Positions 5,532-26,987 of a DNA stretch of 26,987 nucleotides are shown here, one piece after another. The translations under genes were made by a program, and so were the position numbers. Where the stretch lies: contig JACCSD010000114.1 of assembly GCA_013813185.1 (NCBI GenBank), forward strand, positions 1-26,987. Direction: 5' to 3'. The stretch's first letter is position 1. Each line of letters opens with the position of its first letter. The stretch is from Burkholderiaceae bacterium (lineage in GTDB: Bacteria > Pseudomonadota > Gammaproteobacteria > Burkholderiales > Burkholderiaceae_F). Under the pieces are notes generated by a model that was given only the letters and a program-made list of their open reading frames with translations, was not told the DNA's origin and made no database searches.

Positions 5532-7001
5532 TTACTCTTCCAACCCGAGATCCTGAATCTTGCGAGTGATCGTGTTGCGCCCCAGGCCAAGGCGCGTAGC
5601 GGCATCGATCCGCCGCCCGTGGGTGTGCTTGAGCGCAGTGCGGATCACCGTCGCTTCGAATTCGCGCGCCAGCGCGTCCATCACGTCTGGGGTGCCGGCC
5701 TTTAACCGGCGTTCGACTTCTGCGGTCAGTTGCGTCAGCCAGTCCTGATCCGACCACGCCGTCGCAGGCGGTACCAGCATCGGCAGCGGAGCTCCGTTGA
5801 CCGCAGTCGCGGCGCCTGCCGGCGCCGCCGTGCTCAGTGGCGATCCCGTGTCGTGCCGGATTTCCAGCGGCAGATCTTCGACTTTCACGATTTGTGCCGG
5901 AGCGAGCACGGTCAACCAATGACAGAGATTCTCGAGCTGCCGCACGTTGCCGGGAAACGGCAGCTGGCTAACGAAAGCCAAAGCCTCGTCGGATAAGCGC
6001 TTGGGTTCGACCGCAAGCTCCGCTGCGCTCTTGGCGAGGAAGTGGCGCGCCAGCAGCGCGATGTCTTCGCGACGCTCGCGCAGCGACGGTAGCCGCAGCT
6101 TGATCACATTCAAGCGGTGGTACAGATCTTCGCGGAAAGAACCCTGGCGCACCCGCTCTTCGAGGTTCTGATGAGTCGCGGCGATCACGCGCGCAGCAGC
6201 CTTGATCGGCTGATGCCCGCCGACACGGTAGTACGTTCCGTCCGACAACACACGCAACAAGCGCGTCTGCAGCTCTGACGGCATGTCGCCGATTTCGTCG
6301 AGAAACAGAGTCCCGCCTGCGGCCTGCTCGAAGCGGCCCCGCCGCATTGCCTGGGCGCCGGTGAACGCGCCGCGCTCGTGGCCGAACAATTCGCTTTCGA
6401 GCAGGTCACGCGGAATCGCCGCCATGTTGAGTGCGATGAACGGCATCTGTGTGCGCGGGCTGTGCTTGTGCAGCGCACGCGCGACGACCTCCTTGCCGCT
6501 GCCCGACTCGCCGGTCAACAGCACCGTCACATTTGACTGAGACAGGCGGCCGATCGCGCGAAACACTTCCTGCATCGACGGCGCCTGTCCCAGAATTTCC
6601 GGGACGTCCGACGGCGACTCATCGGCCTGCGATTCGCGCACGCTTTCATCGACGGCGCGCCGGATCAACTCGACCGCCTTGTCGAGGTCGAACGGCTTCG
6701 GAAGATATTCGAATGCGCCACCCTGAAAGGAAGACACCGCACTGTCGAGGTCCGAGAACGCCGTCATGATGATCACCGGCAGTGCGGGATGCTTGCGCTT
6801 GACCGCCCGCAATAGCTCGGTGCCGTTGACGCCGGGCATGCGGATGTCCGACACCAGAACCTGGGGAGTGTCGTGCTCGAGTTCGGACAACACTTCCTGC
6901 GCGCCACTAAATGCCTTACAGGGAATGTTCTCGCGCGCGAGCGCTTTTTCCAGCACCCAGCGTATCGAGCGGTCGTCGTCGACGATCCAGACGGGTTTCA
7001 T
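5532..7001 (-). CDS. ntrC: Nitrogen regulation response regulator NtrC (GlnG)
   Basis: Receiver (VWIVDDD, VSDIRMPG), AAA+ (GESGSGKE, ELFGHERGAFTGA, LFLDEIGDM), C-terminal Fis-type HTH (AATRLGLGRNTITRKI). In operon with glnA and ntrB. Confidence 0.97.
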   Translation of the reverse strand: MKPVWIVDDDRSIRWVLEKALARENIPCKAFSGAQEVLSELEHDTPQVLVSDIRMPGVNGTELLRAVKRKHPALPVIIMTAFSDLDSAVSSFQGGAFEYLPKPFDLDKAVELIRRAVDESVRESQADESPSDVPEILGQAPSMQEVFRAIGRLSQSNVTVLLTGESGSGKEVVARALHKHSPRTQMPFIALNMAAIPRDLLESELFGHERGAFTGAQAMRRGRFEQAAGGTLFLDEIGDMPSELQTRLLRVLSDGTYYRVGGHQPIKAAARVIAATHQNLEERVRQGSFREDLYHRLNVIKLRLPSLRERREDIALLARHFLAKSAAELAVEPKRLSDEALAFVSQLPFPGNVRQLENLCHWLTVLAPAQIVKVEDLPLEIRHDTGSPLSTAAPAGAATAVNGAPLPMLVPPATAWSDQDWLTQLTAEVERRLKAGTPDVMDALAREFEATVIRTALKHTHGRRIDAATRLGLGRNTITRKIQDLGLEE

Positions 7002-8080
7002 GCCAGTGGGATCAGGATCCGGAAATTGGTGCGGCCCGGGCGACTGTCGGCTTCGATCATGCCGTCGTGTTGCTGAATGAACGTTTGCGCAAGCGTTAGA
7101 CCGAGCCCGTTGCCACCGTCGCGGCCCGATACCAACGGAAAGAAAATCCGGTCCTTCAGATGATCAGCAATCCCGGGGCCGTTGTCGACGACATGCAGAT
7201 CGAGTGCCAGCCGGTGCCGCGCGCGCGCAATCGTCACTTGCCGCGCGACGCGGGTGCGCAACACGATTTCGGCGTCTCCAGCCGCGATGCGCCCGTCGAG
7301 CGCCTGGGCGGCGTTACGCACGACGTTGAGAAGGGCCTGGATCAGCTGCTCCTTGTCGCCGCGAAACTCGGGAGCACTCGCGTCGTAATCACGCGTGATC
7401 GCCAGCCCGCGCGGGAACTCGGAGACCATGATCAGCCGCACCCGCTCGCACACTTCGTGAATATTGACATCCGAGACCACACGCGGAGAGCGATGCGGCA
7501 TCAGCAAGCGATCGACCAGCGCATGCAGCCGATCGGCCTCCGCGATGATGACGCGCGTGTATTCGCGCTGCTCGCTGCTCGCAAGCTCGGCTTCGAGCAA
7601 CTGCGCGGCGCCACGCACGCCGCCCAGCGGATTCTTGATCTCGTGCGCAAGATTGCGCAGCAGCTCGCGGTTTGCTTCGGTCAAACCGATCTGCCGCTCT
7701 TCGCGGTCGACCTTTAGTTGTTGCTCGATCTCGGTGATCTCGAGCACCAGCGGAATGTTGTCAACGAACTGGACGGCGGCGATCACACGCACCGGCAGTG
7801 GATCGCGCCCCAGCCTGCGCAGTTCCATGATTTGCTTGCGCTGCCCAAAGGCGTTGGCTTGCGCATCCCCAACCAACTGCCGCATCTCCGCGTCATCACC
7901 CAACACCCGGCACGCGAGCTGACCCACCAGCGTCTTGCGCGATGTATCGAAGAGCAGCTCGGCCGACTGATTGACATGGGCGACCCTTCCGCCACTGTCG
8001 ACCAGCAACACCGCCGTCGACAGCAGGTCGAGGCCGTCGTAGGAATGCTGAGTCAGTGCGAACAGCTCGACCGCGCTCAT
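6998..8080 (-). CDS. ntrB: Nitrogen regulation sensor kinase NtrB (GlnL)
   Basis: PAS-like N-terminus, H-box LAHEIKNPLGGVRGAAQLL, N-box LLNVVRNAAQA, DNGPGI and GNGLGL. ATGA overlap with ntrC. Confidence 0.97.
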   Translation of the reverse strand: MSAVELFALTQHSYDGLDLLSTAVLLVDSGGRVAHVNQSAELLFDTSRKTLVGQLACRVLGDDAEMRQLVGDAQANAFGQRKQIMELRRLGRDPLPVRVIAAVQFVDNIPLVLEITEIEQQLKVDREERQIGLTEANRELLRNLAHEIKNPLGGVRGAAQLLEAELASSEQREYTRVIIAEADRLHALVDRLLMPHRSPRVVSDVNIHEVCERVRLIMVSEFPRGLAITRDYDASAPEFRGDKEQLIQALLNVVRNAAQALDGRIAAGDAEIVLRTRVARQVTIARARHRLALDLHVVDNGPGIADHLKDRIFFPLVSGRDGGNGLGLTLAQTFIQQHDGMIEADSRPGRTNFRILIPLA

Positions 8081-8110
8081 GCGCGGCCCAGCGTAACGAG
8101 GAAAACCGAC

Positions 8111-8626
8111 CTACTGGATTTTGAGAAGCGACATCTCGCGCGCGAGCGCGCGGACGTTGTTCTCGGTGCGAGCGATGTCTTCCTGCAAACGCTGCGTGCG
8201 CTCTTTGTAAAGCACGAAGTTGCGTTCATCGCCGCGCCGCTCGGGCTCGCCGTTGTTGAACTCGGACTTGAGTTTGGCCAGGCGCTCTTCCTCGGCCCGC
8301 AGCTCGTCTTCCAGAATGCGCCGCCGATCGCTGTCGCGTGTGCGCTGCGTGTCGCCGTCGACCCGCGGAAAGCTGGCCGGCGATACCGATGCGCGCGGCT
8401 CGGCCGAGGGTTGCACTGCGCTCCTGGCTTGCGGCACACGCGACGCCGGCAGCGTCAAGATCGGCTGCACGTCCATGCGCTTGCAGGTCTTGACATTGCC
8501 GGTGTTGGTGAACTGCTTCTCCCCATTTTCGCCGACGCAGACAAAAATTTCGGAGGATTGCGCCGACACGCCGGTCGACAATAAGGCGCAGGAAACGAAA
8601 CCGAGGACTGAGGCAAGACGCGTCAC
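8111..8626 (-). CDS. DUF4124-like secreted/periplasmic protein
   Basis: Signal peptide (VLGFVSCALLSTGVSA), IFVCVGENGEKQFTN motif, Pro/Ala linker, C-terminal coiled coil. Position between glnA and ntrB. Confidence 0.75.
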   Translation of the reverse strand: MTRLASVLGFVSCALLSTGVSAQSSEIFVCVGENGEKQFTNTGNVKTCKRMDVQPILTLPASRVPQARSAVQPSAEPRASVSPASFPRVDGDTQRTRDSDRRRILEDELRAEEERLAKLKSEFNNGEPERRGDERNFVLYKERTQRLQEDIARTENNVRALAREMSLLKIQ

Positions 8627-8785
8627 GGGGCGATTCCCTGGCAGGCGAGAGGCGCGCAGTGTAAGTCAGTACTTCGCGGTTGCATCCACGGAGTAAGCCG
8701 TCTTGACGGTCCAGTTCCCGCATTCGTGGGAGGGCGCGCTGGTGCTCCAACTGGCCGCCCCGCTTTTCGTCGCGCCGCCGCGACT

Positions 8786-10198
8786 CTACGAGCTGTAGTA
8801 CATGTCGAATTCGAGCGGATGAGTCGTCATCCGAAAGCGCGTGACCTCGTCCATTTTGAGCGCGATGTAGGCGTCGATCAGATCGTTGCTGAACACGCCG
8901 CCGCGCGTCAAAAACTCGCGGTCGTTGTCCAGGTACTCGAGCGCCTGCTCGAGCGACGAACATACCGTCGGAATCTTCGCGTCTTCTTCCGGCGGCAGGT
9001 CGTACAGGTTCTTGTCGGCGGGCTCGCCCGGATGGATCTTGTTCTGCACACCATCGAGCCCGGCCATCATCATCGCGGCAAACGCCATATACCCGTTGGC
9101 GGTCGGATCGGGGAAGCGTACTTCGATGCGGCGCCCTTTCGGGTTCGGAACGTAAGGAATGCGAATCGATGCCGAGCGGTTGCGCGCCGAGTAAGCCAGT
9201 TTCACCGGCGCCTCGAACCCTGGCACCAGCCGCTTGTACGAATTGGTGCCGGGATTGGTGATCGCATTCAATGCGCGCGCGTGCTTGATGATCCCCCCGA
9301 TGTAGTGCAGTGCGAAGTCCGAGAGACCGGCGTAGCCGTTGCCGGCAAAGAGGTTCGTGCTGCCGTTCCAGATCGACTGATGCACGTGCATGCCCGAGCC
9401 GTTGTCGCCCACGACCGGCTTCGGCATGAACGTCGCCGTCTTGCCGTAGCTCGCCGCGACGTTCCACACCGTGTACTTGAGGATCTGCAGCCAATCGGCG
9501 CGCTTGGTGAGCGTCGTGAACTTGGTGCCGATCTCGCACTGCCCCGGCGCCGCGACTTCATGATGATGCACCTCGACTTCGACGCCCTGCTGCTCGAGCA
9601 GCAGGCACATTTCCGAGCGAATATCCTGCAACGAGTCGGTCGGCGGCACCGGAAAGTAGCCGCCCTTCAGCGCAGGGCGATGCGCCAGGTTGCCCGCTTC
9701 GTAGTCGATGCCGGTCGACCACGGCGCCTCTTCGGACTTGATGCGCACCATCGAGCCCGACATGTCGACGCTCCATGTGACCGCATCAAAGATGAAGAAC
9801 TCAGGCTCGGGACCGAAGTACGCGATGTCGCCGACACCCGTCGATTTCAAATACGCCTCGGCGCGCTTGGCGAGCGAGCGTGGATCGCGGTCATATCCTT
9901 TGCCGGTCGACGGCTCGATCACGTCGCAGGTGAGGATCAGCGTGTTCTCTTCACGAAACGGGTCCATCCGCGCCGTGCCGGGATCCGGCATCAGCAGCAT
10001 GTCGGACGCTTCAATCCCCTTCCAGCCGGCGATCGACGAGCCGTCGAAAGCGTGCCCCAACTCGAACTTGTCGTCCTCGAACGCTTTGACGGGCACCGAG
10101 ACGTGCTGCTCCTTGCCTTTGGTATCGGTGAAACGAAGGTCGACGAACAACACTTCGTTGTCTTTTATTGTTTTCATTACGTCTTTGGCCGTCGCCAT
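8786..10198 (-). CDS. glnA: Type I glutamine synthetase
   Basis: 470 aa. [30 protein letters not shown], adenylylation motif [17 protein letters not shown]. Confidence 0.99.
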
Positions 10199-13044: not shown

Positions 13045-13983
13045 CTATTTTGCGACGAGTTTGCCGCTGCGCTGAATCGCCTTCTGGATTTCGGCGACAG
13101 CGTCGTCGATTTGCTCTTCGGACAGCTCTTCGTCGACGCCTGGCTCCCCGACTCTTGGCATCTGAATCGTCGATGCAACCGTCCCCTCGGGAATCAGCAA
13201 CGTCGATACCGGTGCCTCGCTCGGCGGCACCATCTCCATAGACTCGGTGCCGGCCCAGGTCATCGCGACGCCGGTGCAGTTATCCGACTCGGGTCCGCCC
13301 AGCTCCAGCGCGAGCTCTATTAACTCCGGCACCGCGCGCATGACCGTCTTGCCGACGAAAGCGTCGGCGACTTGACGATCGTTCAACGTGCCCCACAGGC
13401 CGTCCGAACACAGCAGCAGCGTGTCGCCGTTGCGCAAAGCCACCGGCCGGCTGATCTCGACCGTCGGTGCGACGTAGGCGCCGATGCAGTTGAATATGCG
13501 ATTGCGTTCGGGATGATCCTTCGCGTCTTCGGGGCGTATCAAGCCCGATTGCACCAGGTGGTGCACGCGCGAATGGTCGATTGTGCGATCCAGAATGCGC
13601 CCGCCGCGAATCATGTACAGCCGGGAGTCACCCACGTGTGCCCAGATCGCAACGCCTTGTTGCACGATGCACGCCACCAGTGTCGTGCGCGGCGCCTCGG
13701 GCAGACTGTGCTCGGCCCGGTACCGATGCAATTCGCGATGTGCGGCCAGCACCGAATCTTCGAGAAAGCGCACCGGGTCAGGCAACAGCGGCTTGGCATC
13801 GCGCTGATAAATCGATGCCAACGTTTGCAGCGTCAGCTGCGAAGCCACCTCGCCGCGCGCGTGACCCCCCATCCCGTCGGCCACCAGCATCAGCATCGAA
13901 TCGCGCGTGTACAGGTACCCCATGCGATCCTGGTTGATCCGCCGGCCGCCTTTCTTGCTCTCTTGGTAAACGGAAAAACGCAT
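13045..13983 (-). CDS. PP2C/PPM-family Ser/Thr phosphatase
   Basis: [32 protein letters not shown] and DNCT metal-binding motifs. Confidence 0.93.
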
Positions 13984-14054
13984 GAAGGAACGATCGCTCG
14001 AGAGATCTGCTACAACGCGACCAAGTTTCGCGCCTTTTGCACGCAGTTACTCTC

Positions 14055-14086
14055 AAAAAATCGTCTGGCTTTGCCAGCGATTTTTT
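14055..14086. terminator. Intrinsic terminator-like hairpin (potentially bidirectional)
   Basis: AAAAAATCG-T-CTGGC-TTT-GCCAG-CGATTTTTT, between the kinase and phosphatase genes. Confidence 0.55.
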
Positions 14087-14096
14087 GCAAACCAAT

Positions 14097-14126
14097 CGCA
14101 CAAAAGTAGGGGTGCACTTTTGTGCG
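14097..14126. other. Perfect 11-bp inverted repeat after the kinase stop codon
   Basis: CGCACAAAAGT (14097-14107), 8-nt loop, ACTTTTGTGCG (14116-14126). Confidence 0.7.
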
Positions 14127-14130
14127 CCTC

Positions 14131-15126
14131 TTAGAACCAGGTGATGTTGTGATCCTTCATGAAACGGGTGACCCGCTCCTGCAGGTTGCGCCAGCGCGCA
14201 CCGGTGCGCTCGGCCATCGAGAACTCGGGCCGCTCGGGCACGTTTTGCAGCAGCTCCTTTTGCACCGCGAACACCGTCTGCGGCCGTTCCAATGAATTGA
14301 GCCGCAAACAGCGCTCAACCATCGAGATCAACTGATTCGAGTACAAACCGCGAAACGAGCGCAGCGCGGTCGGCATCTTGTCTTCCTTGAGCCGATGGTC
14401 TGATTCCTGCGGCGGCATGCCCGACATGCACGCATAGACGCACGATCCGATCGAATACACGTCGGTCCACGGGCCAAGCTCGGCATCGCGCTTGTACAGC
14501 TCGGGCGCGGCGAAGCCCGGCGTATACATCGGATAGGTCTTGCTGATGTCTCTCTGCAGCGTCTGCCGCGCCGCGCCGAAATCGAGCAGGATCGGCGTGC
14601 CGTCCATCCGCAGGTACACGTTGGCGGGTTTGACGTCGAGATGCAACAAGCGATTCGAATGCACTTCGCGCAACCCATTCATCACCTGCGCGAACACGCG
14701 CCGGATGAAGCGCTCGGACAAAACGTCTTTCTGGTCCTTGTTCCGGTTGCGCAATACGTGTTCCTGCAGCGAGCGACCGGATTCGTAGTGCATCACCATG
14801 TATACCGTCTCGTTCGCGCGAAAAAAATTGATCACGCGAACGATGTTCGGGTGGTAGATCGACGCGAGCGCCCGGCCTTCCTCGAAGAAGCACTTCAGGC
14901 CGATGCGGTAGGTGTTCAAATTCTCGGGCGCGATGTAAGGCGCCAGCTCGCCCGGCTTGCGCTGCGCCAGAGCGGCCGGCATGTATTCCTTGATCGCCAC
15001 CGAGTTGCCTTGTTCATCGGTCGCCAGATAGACGATCGAGAATCCGCCTGAAGATATCTTCTTTACAATGCGATATCCGCCGACCTCGAGGCTTTCAGGT
15101 AACGATGAGTTGGTTTGCGCGGGCAT
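14131..15126 (-). CDS. Hanks-type Ser/Thr protein kinase
   Basis: GGFSIVY glycine loop, VAIKEY, HLDVKPAN catalytic loop, DFG, YTPGFAAPE, DVYSIG. Soluble, no TM. Start at ATG 15126 preferred over 15189. Confidence 0.93.
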   Translation of the reverse strand: MPAQTNSSLPESLEVGGYRIVKKISSGGFSIVYLATDEQGNSVAIKEYMPAALAQRKPGELAPYIAPENLNTYRIGLKCFFEEGRALASIYHPNIVRVINFFRANETVYMVMHYESGRSLQEHVLRNRNKDQKDVLSERFIRRVFAQVMNGLREVHSNRLLHLDVKPANVYLRMDGTPILLDFGAARQTLQRDISKTYPMYTPGFAAPELYKRDAELGPWTDVYSIGSCVYACMSGMPPQESDHRLKEDKMPTALRSFRGLYSNQLISMVERCLRLNSLERPQTVFAVQKELLQNVPERPEFSMAERTGARWRNLQERVTRFMKDHNITWF

Positions 15127-15313
15127 CGTGTTGCATTTTGGGAACCGCGGCGATTCTAGCCAATAGGACTCGGTGGACCGTAACAACAATAAGGTGCGTT
15201 TTCGCCTGTTTTCGTCTTAAACCTGCGCCAACCGTCCCCGATATCTCTTGATAACTCGCCCTTGATGATGTTGCTTTCGCCGCTTTCATCGTTGCTTTCC
15301 CGTTGAATCTGCC

Positions 15314-21085: not shown

Positions 21086-22465
21086 TCAGGCGGCGCGGCG
21101 CTCTTTCGGAGGCTGATTTCCCTCGCCGCCGTATTCCTTCAGCCGGTTATAAAGGGTCTTCAAACTCACGCCCAATGCGGCAGCGGTCCGTTCCTTGTGG
21201 CCCTCAAAGTGTTCGAGCGTCGCAAAAACCAGGTCACGTTCCACATCAGCGAGGGTAGTGCCGATCCGTACCGACAGGATCGACTCCGCGTTGCCGGCCG
21301 AAGAGCGCCCGGCTTGCAATTCGAGCCATTCATCACTGATCGTTGCGCCAGACGCCATCACATAGGCACGCTGCACGACATTGCGGAGCTCGCGCACGTT
21401 GCCCGGCCAGTCGTACTCGTTCATGCGTTCGTAAGCGCTCTTGCTCAAACGCTTTTCCTTGCCTTCTTCTTTGCAAATTTCCGCCAGGAAGTGGTCCGCG
21501 AGTAGCGCGATGTCCTCTCTTCTTTCGCGCAGTGGCGGCAAACGGATAGGAAAGACATTCAATCGATACAGAAGATCCTCGCGCAGCTTGCCGTCGACCA
21601 CGGCACGCTCGGGCACCCGGTTGGTCGCGCCTAGTACCCGCACATCGGCACGCTGCGTTTCGGTCGATCCGACCCGGTTGAAGGTGCCGGTCTCCAAAAC
21701 CCGCAGCAGCTTGACCTGAAGGTCAGGCGGCATTTCCGTGACTTCATCCAGGAAGAGTGTTCCGCCGTGGGCACGCTCAAAGAAGCCAAGATGCTGCCGA
21801 TTGGCACCGGTGAAGCTGCCTTTCTCGTGACCGAAAATTTCGCTCTCCATTAAATGGGGCGAAATGGCGCCGCAGTTGATCGCGAGAAACGGCCGGCTGC
21901 GACGCCGACTCAGCGAGTGAATCGTTTGCGCCACCAATTCCTTGCCGGTGCCGCTTTCGCCCTGTATGAGCACCGTCACCGCGGTTGCCGCCACGCGTGA
22001 CACTTGCTCGTAAACGCGCTTCATCGACGGCGAGCCGCCCCACATATCTCCGAATCGCCCGCTGCGATCGAGTTCAACGCGCAGATCGGAAATTTCTGCC
22101 TGTAACTGCCCAGGCCGCATCACTCGTGCCAGGATGCCCTGCACTTGACCGGGGCTCACCGGCTTGATCAAGTAGTCCGTCGCGCCCAAGCGCAACGCTT
22201 CAATCGAGGTTTCTAGACTTGCGTGCCCGGTGATCAATACGACTTCGGTGTCCGCGAGCGCTGCTTTGTCGTTGAAGAGCTCGGTTCCCTTGCCGTCGGG
22301 CAAGACGAGATCGAGGAACACCACATCCGGAGCGCTGGTCGCAAGCTGGCGTCGCGCGTCGCGCATGGTGCGTGCAGTCGAAGCGGTGAACCCCTGGCTG
22401 GCGACAAGTTCCGCCAGCATTTCCGCCGTATCGGAATCGTCGTCGACGATGAGTGCGTGACTCAT
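21086..22465 (-). CDS. sigma54-dependent response regulator (receiver-AAA+-Fis HTH enhancer-binding protein)
   Basis: ALIVDDD, FLDLVLPDG receiver; GESGTGKE, EIFGHEKGSFTGA, LFLDEVTEM, WPGNVRELRN; C-terminal TAAALGVSLKTLYNRL. Confidence 0.95.
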   Translation of the reverse strand: MSHALIVDDDSDTAEMLAELVASQGFTASTARTMRDARRQLATSAPDVVFLDLVLPDGKGTELFNDKAALADTEVVLITGHASLETSIEALRLGATDYLIKPVSPGQVQGILARVMRPGQLQAEISDLRVELDRSGRFGDMWGGSPSMKRVYEQVSRVAATAVTVLIQGESGTGKELVAQTIHSLSRRRSRPFLAINCGAISPHLMESEIFGHEKGSFTGANRQHLGFFERAHGGTLFLDEVTEMPPDLQVKLLRVLETGTFNRVGSTETQRADVRVLGATNRVPERAVVDGKLREDLLYRLNVFPIRLPPLRERREDIALLADHFLAEICKEEGKEKRLSKSAYERMNEYDWPGNVRELRNVVQRAYVMASGATISDEWLELQAGRSSAGNAESILSVRIGTTLADVERDLVFATLEHFEGHKERTAAALGVSLKTLYNRLKEYGGEGNQPPKERRAA

Positions 22466-22652: not shown

Positions 22653-22682
22653 AAAAAAAAAGAGCAATAGGGAACTGCCCTA
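22653..22682 (-). terminator. Intrinsic terminator after the 80-aa ORF
   Basis: Minus strand TAGGGCAGTTCCCTATTGCTC followed by T9. Can fold as TAGGG/CCCTA or AGGGCAG/TTGCTCT. Confidence 0.55.
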
Positions 22683-22922
22683 CACGACGTTGCGACCCGC
22701 CTCGACCACCGTCAGCAGAAAATTATGGCGTCCGACAGCGTGTGCAAGGTCCGCAGCGTAGGCGGCCGCCGCCGGCAACGAACTCAGCACCGCACCGGCA
22801 ATCAGCTTGCCCTGATAACCGACAACCCAGCACCCCTTGCCGAGCCTCGCGAGCAAGAATTCATTAGAGCTCGACTTCGCTGCCACTGAGCGTTTAGCGC
22901 GCGCCTGATCCGATGCTTTCAT
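22680..22922 (-). CDS. Small hypothetical protein (80 aa)
   Basis: AGGAG 5 nt before the ATG, near-consensus sigma54 promoter 40 nt upstream, terminator at the stop codon. Confidence 0.75.
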   Translation of the reverse strand: MKASDQARAKRSVAAKSSSNEFLLARLGKGCWVVGYQGKLIAGAVLSSLPAAAAYAADLAHAVGRHNFLLTVVEAGRNVV

Positions 22923-23137: not shown

Positions 23138-23410
23138 ATGATTAACTTCATCATTTGGCTCATCGTGGGTGGCGTCGTTGGCTGGCTGGCCAGTTTGATC
23201 ATGCGGACCGATGCGCAACAGGGAATTTTCCTCAACATTATCGTCGGCATCGTGGGAGCTGCGCTGGGCGGATGGTTGATTTCTCCGCTGCTGGGAATGC
23301 CTTCAATCAACCAGGATGCGTTTAGTTTTGGAGCTTTGGTCGTGTCGCTGATTGGCGCGGTCATCCTGCTCGCGATCGTCAATTTGTTTCGTCGCGGCTC
23401 AGTTCGTTAA
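23138..23410 (+). CDS. GlsB/YeaQ/YmgE family stress-response membrane protein
   Basis: FIIWLIVGGVVGWLASLIM, NIIVGIVGAALGGWL, SLIGAVILLAI; RBS GAGGT; start at ATG 23138. Confidence 0.92.
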   Translation: MINFIIWLIVGGVVGWLASLIMRTDAQQGIFLNIIVGIVGAALGGWLISPLLGMPSINQDAFSFGALVVSLIGAVILLAIVNLFRRGSVR

Positions 23411-25444: not shown

Positions 25445-25906
25445 TTAGCGGCCTTTGTTTCGCGAACCACTCAAAGTATCGCGATCCGAACCCGTAGATT
25501 CAGATGAACCTTGGGGTCGATTCGTTTGCTGATCCGTCTTCGACGAACTGCTCGTTCCATATTGGGTGTCCAACGCACCCTGGCGCAACTTGTCGGAAGA
25601 CTGTTCGCCGGCTTGGTTCATCTCCGGAGACTCGCCGTCGTCATCGTTGGCTCCCGCACCCTGCTGGTTGCTCGTTTGACCCCGCTGCGAGCCTTTCTGT
25701 GATCCGGGGTTGCGAGAGTCAGAAGACTCACCCCCGGATCCTTGATCCGATTGGCGCGCGCCCGGCTGTCCTTGCGATCCTGGATTGGAACCCGGTTGGC
25801 CGTGCGACTCTTGGCCACCTTGCTGCTCGGGATTTTTTCCGCTTTGCGAAGTGTTCTGCTGCTGCTGGTCCTTCTGTTCCGGCTTTGGCTGATTCTGCTT
25901 GGTCAT
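25445..25906 (-). CDS. Low-complexity hydrophilic (Q/G/S/N-rich) protein, likely intrinsically disordered
   Basis: 153 aa with no W, F, C, I or V; RBS AGGAG; sigma54 motif upstream; terminator downstream. Confidence 0.8.
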   Translation of the reverse strand: MTKQNQPKPEQKDQQQQNTSQSGKNPEQQGGQESHGQPGSNPGSQGQPGARQSDQGSGGESSDSRNPGSQKGSQRGQTSNQQGAGANDDDGESPEMNQAGEQSSDKLRQGALDTQYGTSSSSKTDQQTNRPQGSSESTGSDRDTLSGSRNKGR

Positions 25907-25975: not shown

Positions 25976-25991
25976 CGCAAGCGTTGTGCCT
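25976..25991 (-). promoter_or_regulatory. sigma54 -24/-12 promoter
   Basis: Minus strand AGGCACAACGCTTGCG, GG-N10-GC, 70 nt upstream of ATG 25906. Confidence 0.75.
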
Positions 25992-26032: not shown

Positions 26033-26048
26033 GGGAATGCGGCTTGCC
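26033..26048 (+). promoter_or_regulatory. Weaker sigma54-like motif upstream of the HisKA gene
   Basis: GGGAATGCGGCTTGCC, GG-N10-GC with TTGC but a non-consensus -24 element. Confidence 0.35.
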
Positions 26049-26120: not shown

Positions 26121-26819
26121 ATGAAGACGATCGCCGTTGTTGCCGACACCGACCGGCGATGTGGTGCGTACTGGCTCGCAAATCTTGATGCTGCGGGTAG
26201 CACGGCATTGATGGCGGCCGTCGTCAGCCGCTTCAATCATGATCTGCGCACCCCGCTGAACACTATTCTCGGCTGGACGCACTTGTTGCAGCAAGGCGGC
26301 CTCGATGCCGTTCGCGCCAAACATGTCGCCGACGTCATCGCCCGCAACTCGCGCGATCAAACGCAGCTACTGGAAGATTTTGTCGATGATGGCCGCGCCA
26401 TCCTTGGCGCATTGGAATTGCAACGGGTTGCGCTGAACATTGACCACCTGCTGGCAGACGCGATCACGCGTCTGAATCCGTTGCTCACCCTGCACGGCGT
26501 CTCGCTGAACACGAACTTCGACACCACCGACGTCTCAGTCACTGGCGATGTGCGCCGTCTGACGCGATTGGCATACCGGTTGCTGGTCATCGTGACGCGG
26601 CGCGCGCGCGAGGCGACAAAGATCAAGGTCGAAACGGATGTCGATCGCGGGCAGTACGTGCTGGCGCTGTCGGGAACCGCGCACGAGCCGGATTGGTCGG
26701 ACGCGGCGCTGTTGGATTTGCGTGTCAGCACATTGGTCGCGGCGCTGCACGAAGGCGAATTGCAAGTCGGTGCTGACGCAACGCGACCTTGCATCATGCT
26801 CAGATTGCCGTGCAGCTGA
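26121..26819 (+). CDS. Histidine-kinase-derived protein: intact HisKA, degenerate HATPase, no sensor domain
   Basis: H-box NHDLRTPLNTILGWTHLL. C-terminal domain follows HATPase layout (GDVRRL..., LHEGEL, LRLP) but lacks the N-box Asn, DxGxG and GxGLG. Start may be ATG 26211. Confidence 0.8.
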   Translation: MKTIAVVADTDRRCGAYWLANLDAAGSTALMAAVVSRFNHDLRTPLNTILGWTHLLQQGGLDAVRAKHVADVIARNSRDQTQLLEDFVDDGRAILGALELQRVALNIDHLLADAITRLNPLLTLHGVSLNTNFDTTDVSVTGDVRRLTRLAYRLLVIVTRRAREATKIKVETDVDRGQYVLALSGTAHEPDWSDAALLDLRVSTLVAALHEGELQVGADATRPCIMLRLPCS

Positions 26820-26855: not shown

Positions 26856-26987
26856 ATGCCGGACAGCACGCTTGATTTGGAACTATCAACTCCTCCCGTC
26901 ACTGACAAGGGGCACGGAACGCGCGCGCTTGGCCCCAGCGATACGTCGGACAGCGGCAGCGACCTGCAGGGCCCGGGCATCTACGAG
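26856..26987 (+). CDS. Hypothetical protein, 5' part only (runs off the window)
   Basis: RBS AGGAG; MPDSTLDLELSTPPVTDKGHGTRALGPSDTSDSGSDLQGPGIYE...; no stop before the window end. Confidence 0.65.
   Translation, partial: MPDSTLDLELSTPPVTDKGHGTRALGPSDTSDSGSDLQGPGIYE

Follow-up and report, generated by a model that had tools for sequence, protein, structure and literature searches.

What a histidine kinase homologue does once it has kept its phospho-acceptor histidine and lost the means to phosphorylate it, and on which regulator it then acts, are the questions raised by a gene close to the end of a 26,987 nt stretch of DNA from a Burkholderiaceae bacterium (GCA_013813185.1, contig JACCSD010000114.1), the whole of which is referred to here as the window. 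A sequence-only reading of the window had taken the product for a sensorless, kinase-dead, probably ChpT-like phosphotransferase, and had proposed that it shuttles phosphate to, or acts as a phosphatase or scaffold for, an orphan sigma-54 enhancer-binding protein (bEBP) encoded in the same window. The name pHK is used below for the kinase-dead HisKA protein of the open reading frame at 26121-26819 (+), the gene and protein regions of which are as follows.

26121..26819 (+): the pHK gene, stop codon included; open reading frame with translation, 232 aa.
26190..26405 (+): DHp helical hairpin, residues 24-95, with AF2 helices at 24-58 and 63-95.
26238-26240 (+): His40 codon CAT, in the motif H-D-L-R-T; H40 and T44 are invariant.
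26427..26816 (+): pseudo-catalytic domain of predicted CA fold, residues 103-232, without nucleotide-binding boxes, from structure matches and hhalign.
26547..26615 (+): former N box, residues 143-165; Asn positions replaced, R149 and R153 invariant.
26667..26726 (+): vestigial G1/lid/G2 region, residues 183-202, with conserved E-P-D-W-S and L-L-D-L-R; about 24 lid residues deleted.

pHK is a soluble, sensorless protein of the HisKA type. The in-frame codon directly 5' of its ATG is TAA, so that no upstream sensor or membrane segment can be fused to it; residues 1-23 are not hydrophobic, the remainder of the protein contains no hydrophobic segment either, and no PAS domain was detected with Pfam. 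The sole Pfam match is HisKA (PF00512; residues 38-92, E 7e-9), and the same domain was matched in 25/25 members of the family. In the AF2 model, which was built on 25 homologues (pLDDT 90.9, pTM 0.85), the DHp hairpin is followed by a compact alpha/beta domain of the CA fold that spans residues 103-232. A structure search with this model returned HK853 (Z 18.6, 209 residues aligned), CusS (Z 18.1) and DivL (Z 17.7), while the second domain alone matched isolated CA domains, namely those of ThkA (Z 17.8, 130 residues aligned) and VanS (Z 17.1). The top 50 structural matches were made up of true HisKA kinase cores together with DivL and RetS.

The nucleotide-binding boxes were mapped by profile alignment (hhalign) of pHK to the kinase core of a real hybrid kinase encoded nearby. 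At the N box the canonical NLLNNA is replaced by RLLVIV, at G1 the canonical DxGxG by LSGTA and at G2 the canonical GLGVGL by ALLDLR, nothing in pHK aligns with the F box, and the CA-like domain is shorter than the real kinase core by about 24 residues, which correspond to the ATP lid. HATPase_c (PF02518) gave no match at E<=10 in any of 25 family members, and a HATPase_c scan of the whole genome matched 28 places, the pHK open reading frame not being among them. NCBIfam kinase models (VanS, TorS, LuxQ, PhoR and others) stop at about residue 180 of pHK and score far under their cut-offs. No member of the family has kept the Mg-binding Asn of the N box, the Asp that binds adenine, either of the glycine boxes or the lid, and no orthologue with intact N or G boxes was found. 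On the strength of these alignments and of the model, the ATP site of pHK is lost, with the CA fold predicted to be retained. The sequence-only reading had pointed to the intact histidine in HDLRTPLN (residues 40-47), to the strings RLLVIVTRR (153-161), SGTAHE (184-189) and LLDLRV (197-202) in place of the boxes, to the missing F box and lid and to the lack of any transmembrane, PAS or other input domain, and each of these points was borne out.

A protein search of 5.8 billion sequences yielded at least 245 matches to the pHK family, and the best 120 of these were nearly all of about 232 aa, carried HisKA as their sole Pfam domain and were 60-99% identical. An exhaustive search of 50% cluster representatives recovered only about eight full-length clusters, reaching down to 39-44% identity, below which the scores drop to those of generic kinases. 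Residues R37, F38, H40, R43, T44, P45, N47, T48, G51, W52, R149 and R153 are invariant over the whole range of the family. His40, Thr44, Arg149 and Arg153 remain so down to 33-43% identity, and His40, Asp/Glu41, Thr44 and Pro45 are invariant or conservatively replaced down to 33%, which we read as the mark of a protein that has kept its phosphoryl chemistry. Pairwise comparison of 22 orthologues gave a dN/dS of about 0.12 overall, with 0.06 in the DHp, 0.15 in the CA-like domain and 0.12-0.17 in the stretches that were once the N box and lid, all of which are rough values because dS is partly saturated. The gene is present as a single copy in 20/21 genomes of the window's genus, the sole miss being a 71%-complete genome; among 201 genomes of the same GTDB family it also occurs in four sister genera and was not detected in the other 21 genera of the sample. 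To judge from these sequences, loss of the ATP site is a trait of the whole family and not local decay. Orthologues with intact boxes, or a His that varies, would have told against the sequence-only reading, and neither was seen. The records that carry pHK are all MAGs, labelled as Burkholderiaceae or uncultured betaproteobacterium, and the database names for the protein are 'sensor histidine kinase', 'HisKA domain-containing protein' or, wrongly, 'KdpD'. Automatic labels such as the first and last of these lead to misassigned two-component wiring. Two cysteines are kept in the close family and not in distant members, Cys14 (26160-26162) in the N-terminal tail, where it is part of a conserved R-C/F-G-x-x-W motif, and Cys224 (26790-26792), which lies in R-P-C near the C terminus.

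The proposed partner of pHK is encoded upstream of it on the opposite strand.

21086..22465 (-): orphan NtrC-type bEBP, with the order REC - sigma-54 AAA+ - Fis HTH, from Pfam, REC alignment, synteny and co-occurrence.
22091-22465 (-): REC domain of the bEBP; D8-D10, D52, T79 and K101 are invariant.

With these invariant residues in place the receiver should be phosphorylatable, and no kinase gene adjoins the bEBP gene. From 99% down to 60% pHK identity the gene order is kept as spoT, greB, small ORF, BON, bEBP, orf80, Transgly_assoc, DUF883-like, holin-like, lipocalin, Q/G-rich gene (-) and pHK. An orthologue of the bEBP, 87-98% identical and with an intact REC, was found about 3.6 kb from pHK in 19/19 close loci with enough flanking sequence, and the pair shares a contig in other genera too, at a distance of 3-24 kb. 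When orthologues were counted at E<=1e-156 over the 201 family genomes, the bEBP was present in 30/35 pHK-positive genomes versus 4/166 pHK-negative ones, figures that overstate independence because the genomes are related to each other. In one locus (L060:4904-6278, -) the match to the bEBP orthologue is split into two pieces that overlap, covering residues 1-328 and 326-459, which points to a frameshift in that MAG or to an error in its long-read assembly.

Promoters of the sigma-54 type were analysed in the intergenic DNA around pHK and further into the gene island, where the following features are found.

26033..26048 (+): sigma-54-type promoter, GG-N10-GC, GGGAATG-N4-TTGC, 87 nt before the pHK ATG.
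25976-25991 (-): sigma-54 promoter of the Q/G/S-rich gene, stronger than that of pHK, present in all 22 loci aligned and the best conserved of the region.
25445..25906 (-): gene divergent from pHK, for a low-complexity protein of 153 aa that is Q/G/S-rich and lacks any Pfam match; it has its own conserved sigma-54 promoter.
22680-22922 (-): orf80, its sigma-54 promoter back-to-back with that of the Transgly_assoc gene.
23138-23410 (+): Transgly_assoc gene, its sigma-54 promoter back-to-back with that of orf80.
26857..26987 (+): start of the gene for a 140-aa acidic Gly/Asp/Ser-rich protein without Pfam match, 37 nt after the pHK stop and truncated where the window ends.

The pattern GG(A/T/C)A(C/T)(A/G)-N4-TTGC is present 59-87 nt upstream of pHK in 18/22 orthologous loci against a background of 0.04 per 220 nt, the pattern having been defined after seeing the data and the surrounding intergenic DNA being otherwise poorly alignable. 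In the more distant loci L077, L078 and L079 (40-60% pHK identity), pHK lies directly 3' of the Transgly_assoc gene, and back-to-back consensus sigma-54 promoters are found there also. Judged by this putative promoter motif, the pHK gene would be part of a sigma-54 regulon, and since pHK appears to have its own promoter of this type, the bEBP probably controls the level of its partner and thereby closes a feedback loop. The genes of the surrounding island (BON, YmgE-type, DUF883, lipocalin and second-rpoN genes) give it the look of a stress regulon, as far as gene content can tell. Each genome of the window's genus carries two rpoN genes, and in genus members the second of these, together with a paralogous REC-bEBP (52-55% identical to that of the window), is located about 10-13 kb from pHK; an rpoN gene also lies about 2 kb downstream of pHK in L077 and L078. 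The stress island may possess its own sigma-54 paralogue. The second rpoN is divergent from the paralogous REC-bEBP gene on contig C276 of genome G000 (L081:2717-6296), and also at L007:20342-20699. A literature search for a sigma-54/BON stress regulon in Burkholderia found nothing relevant. The acidic 140-aa protein, the full gene of which was found at L007:10736-11158, is encoded downstream of pHK in 13/27 tabulated loci, including L007 from the window's own species, and it may share an operon with pHK or be a partner.

Contact between the two proteins was assessed by co-folding a pHK dimer with the REC domain of the bEBP. This gave an ipSAE of 0.59 versus 0.00 for the best of three controls, a score that the tool rates as 'weak support', the mark being one that 58/80 solved complexes and 2/110 mismatches reach; the runs agreed in at least 84% of contacts, with a partner pLDDT of 77. 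Because kinase-regulator complexes have already been solved, the co-fold speaks for a kinase-like docking mode and not for specificity, and the weak pass may reflect memory of such complexes. Covariation of the DHp and REC specificity residues proved unusable as evidence, both sets being almost invariant. When synteny, co-occurrence, the shared putative sigma-54 regulon and the weak co-fold pass are considered together, a functional tie of pHK to the bEBP is well supported by sequence comparison and modelling. That pHK is kinase-dead and acts on the receiver of the bEBP, taken as one claim, is in our judgement probable. The sequence-only reading had named this bEBP as the partner and had noted that no kinase gene stands beside it; the tie is supported, with the reservation just given on the docking, and the second statement held.

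Our main reading, to which we assign a probability of roughly 0.45, is that pHK is a histidine phosphotransferase that connects variable hybrid kinases to the bEBP, the transfer steps and the identity of the donors being what we infer. pHK would be a sensorless, ATP-blind descendant of a histidine kinase of the HisKA class, similar to those of hybrid kinases, and would form a DHp dimer unable to phosphorylate itself. HPt-less hybrid kinases would phosphorylate His40 through their receiver domains, and His40~P would pass the phosphate on to Asp52 of the bEBP; the reverse step, by which pHK would drain phosphate from the activator, is also possible. The nearest paralogues of pHK in its own genome are hybrid kinases and not the NtrB of the same window, and that genome encodes six HPt-less hybrid kinases.

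Hybrid kinases without an HPt (sensor - HisKA - HATPase_c - REC) were found near pHK in three lineages, none of them universal. In six close loci such a gene follows pHK at 1-1.5 kb; the distance is about 5 kb in L016 (41% pHK identity) and about 6 kb in L077 (43% pHK identity), where the gene adjoins another bEBP. Two candidates for a universal donor were rejected: four further genomes of the group lack an orthologue of the adjacent DUF4118-PAS hybrid kinase, and the C196 hybrid kinase, the most similar to pHK in the window's genome, is present in only 10/21 genomes of the genus. In one subclade, at L012:9244-12230 and likewise in L065, L069, L072, L074 and L076, a Csp gene and the DUF4118-PAS hybrid kinase gene are inserted between pHK and fumC, and Csp (PF03860, cysteine-rich and of the copper-storage type) recurs near the 41%-identical pHK relative of L016. 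With regard to free HPt proteins, none was found in the window's genome, where HPt domains occur only in a ChpA-like protein of 1981 aa, and none in the 100%-complete genome G029. A general statement that the genus has no free HPt fails, however, as an open reading frame of 122-146 aa encodes one in 2/5 near-complete genus genomes, and the argument for pHK by exclusion is accordingly incomplete.

To our knowledge, degenerate kinases that act as histidine phosphotransferases have been studied in only a few cases, namely Spo0B, ChpT, PhyT and RedE. ChpT, of the Caulobacter CckA-ChpT-CtrA/CpdR relay, resembles pHK in being soluble and sensorless, with a DHp-like dimer, a phosphorylatable His and an ATP-blind CA-like domain, and it stands where pHK is proposed to stand, between the receivers of hybrid kinases and the receiver of a transcription factor. 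In contrast, its target is a regulator of the OmpR type, whereas that of the betaproteobacterial pHK would be a sigma-54 activator, and pHK appears to derive independently from the HisKA (PF00512) class and has no fixed partner hybrid kinase that we could find. HPTransfase (PF10090, the ChpT family) gave no match at E<=10 in 25 pHK members, neither ChpT nor Spo0B was in the top 50 structural matches under either ranking, and the genome scan for HPt (PF01627) did not match the pHK open reading frame. Membership in the ChpT/HPTransfase, Spo0B or HPt families was ruled out on these grounds of Pfam and structure ranking. Of the earlier label 'ChpT-like phosphotransferase', the architecture (intact His, dead CA domain without a lid, no input domain) was upheld and the homology to ChpT was not.

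Spo0B of the Bacillus sporulation phosphorelay is, like pHK, a dimeric helical-bundle protein with a vestigial CA-like alpha/beta domain, and acts as a His phosphotransferase, but it has no sequence match to pHK and receives its phosphate from Spo0F, a single-domain receiver. PhyT (formerly PhyP), from the general stress response of Sphingomonas melonis, is a histidine kinase with a degenerate ATPase domain that is encoded at the locus of the stress-response regulator and integrates several kinases; owing to that domain it was first assumed to be a phosphatase, and later work established it as a phosphotransferase in which no phosphatase activity could be detected and which also restrains its regulator by binding (PMC5898713). 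The degenerate ATPase domain and the location at the locus of a stress regulator are shared with pHK. PhyT, however, is membrane-anchored, with a periplasmic domain and a DHp of the HRxxN type, and its output goes to PhyR, NepR and an ECF sigma factor (PMC5898713), whereas pHK is soluble, without a membrane anchor, has an H-D-L-R-T DHp and is linked to a sigma-54 activator. The kinase-like RedE of Myxococcus xanthus is unable to autophosphorylate; it takes up phosphate from a receiver domain and removes phosphate from a response regulator. We liken it to pHK on these described properties, but unlike pHK it is encoded in a four-gene operon with its partners (PMC2755868).

In sequence pHK is closest to hybrid-type kinases (TorS, LuxQ, GacS) and to the pseudokinases DivL and RetS. 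The latter two (4q20, 6dk7, 7n0e), kinase cores repurposed as binding regulators, are among its best matches in sequence and fold; DivL differs in having Tyr in place of His as well as PAS domains, whereas pHK keeps its His, and RetS is a large hybrid sensor, whereas pHK has no input domain at all. The best match among solved sequences is PDB 6nb0 chain A ('Histidine kinase', 287 aa; E 1.4e-15, query residues 29-197), the aligned N-box stretch of which is also without Asn. This protein is only distantly related to pHK and is not in the Foldseek top 50, and a literature search on the entry found no publication; given the missing Asn, the structure of a related degenerate kinase may already exist without a paper that describes it. 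By analogy, pHK would represent an independent degeneration of an ordinary HisKA kinase that works like ChpT, Spo0B, PhyT and RedE and belongs with none of them.

A dedicated phosphatase could also be envisaged, although we hold this to be rather unlikely. In that case the DHp would bind the phosphorylated activator and dephosphorylate it, the activator having been phosphorylated by an unlinked kinase or by acetyl phosphate, and the sigma-54 feedback would shut the stress response off. The invariant Thr44 lies at His+4, the position which we take to be needed for HisKA phosphatase activity, and together with the feedback promoter the H-D-x-x-T motif would suit a phosphatase equally well. The conservation of that promoter and the failure to find a universal donor kinase also favour it, and the same pHK-bEBP synteny and co-fold evidence applies. 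What it leaves unexplained is the recurrence of HPt-less hybrid kinases near pHK. The strict invariance of the His likewise tells against it, since in several HisKA kinases phosphatase activity does not depend on a strictly invariant His. As to precedent, RedE is a kinase-like protein that dephosphorylates RedF (PMC2755868), which favours a phosphatase, while PhyT, for which the same assumption was first made, proved to be a phosphotransferase (PMC5898713).

Regulation independent of phosphorylation, in the manner of DivL and RetS, is a less probable role, which we regard as doubtful. pHK would then bind the receiver of the activator, or pair with hybrid kinases in DHp heteromers, and would sequester or modulate its partner in this way without carrying phosphate. 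The prominence of DivL (4q20) and RetS (6dk7, 7n0e) among the best sequence and structure matches, and of hybrid kinases as nearest paralogues, is in keeping with such a role, as is the conservation of the vestigial lid surface (E-P-D-W, L-L-D-L-R) and of Arg149/Arg153, which would be expected of a binding face; PhyT, moreover, also represses by binding unphosphorylated PhyR (PMC5898713). However, pHK has kept His40, Asp/Glu41, Thr44 and Pro45 down to 33% identity, whereas DivL has lost its His, and phosphotransfer through His40 remains the reading that we prefer.

It is very improbable that pHK is a still-active kinase using ATP or another donor through a non-canonical pocket in a remodelled CA domain, for although the CA fold appears to be retained under purifying selection and invariant arginines line the former N-box helix, the Asn, the Asp, the glycine boxes and the lid are missing in every member and there is no sensor domain to regulate such an activity. 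That the gene is a decaying, functionless kinase remnant, to which the lost catalytic motifs might point, is scarcely credible given a length kept at about 232 aa with no stops, single copies in 20/21 genus genomes and presence in four other genera, a dN/dS of 0.12 and a conserved upstream promoter, and local pseudogene decay in particular was ruled out by the family-wide conservation, the single-copy presence and the dN/dS.

A further and more speculative step, which we consider unlikely as a whole, would place phosphotransfer by pHK at the constant hub of a phosphorelay in which many kinases converge on one regulator and switch on a self-contained stress island with its own sigma-54 paralogue (rpoN2) in an uncultured soil lineage of Burkholderiaceae. 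If true, this would make pHK the centre of a betaproteobacterial system, based on sigma-54, that parallels the general stress pathway Pak-SdrG-PhyT-PhyR of Alphaproteobacteria and evolved separately, from a HisKA hybrid kinase. pHK adds an example to a known design and does not define a system of a new kind, and because the design is already known and the hosts are uncultured its practical impact is limited. The family is set apart by its ordinary HisKA scaffold, its tie to a sigma-54 enhancer-binding protein and its place in an island that resembles a stress regulon, and pHK offers a candidate answer to the questions of how HPt-less hybrid kinases reach a transcription factor and of who controls an orphan receiver-containing activator.

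Elsewhere in the window, a canonical glnA-ntrB-ntrC operon at 5532-10198 (-) encodes glutamine synthetase, a kinase with intact HisKA and HATPase_c domains and a REC-sigma-54 activator, and within the same stretch of DNA it serves as a useful contrast to both the dead kinase and the orphan bEBP. Adjacent genes for a PP2C phosphatase and a Hanks-type Ser/Thr kinase are located at 13045-15189 (-), between rph and yicC.
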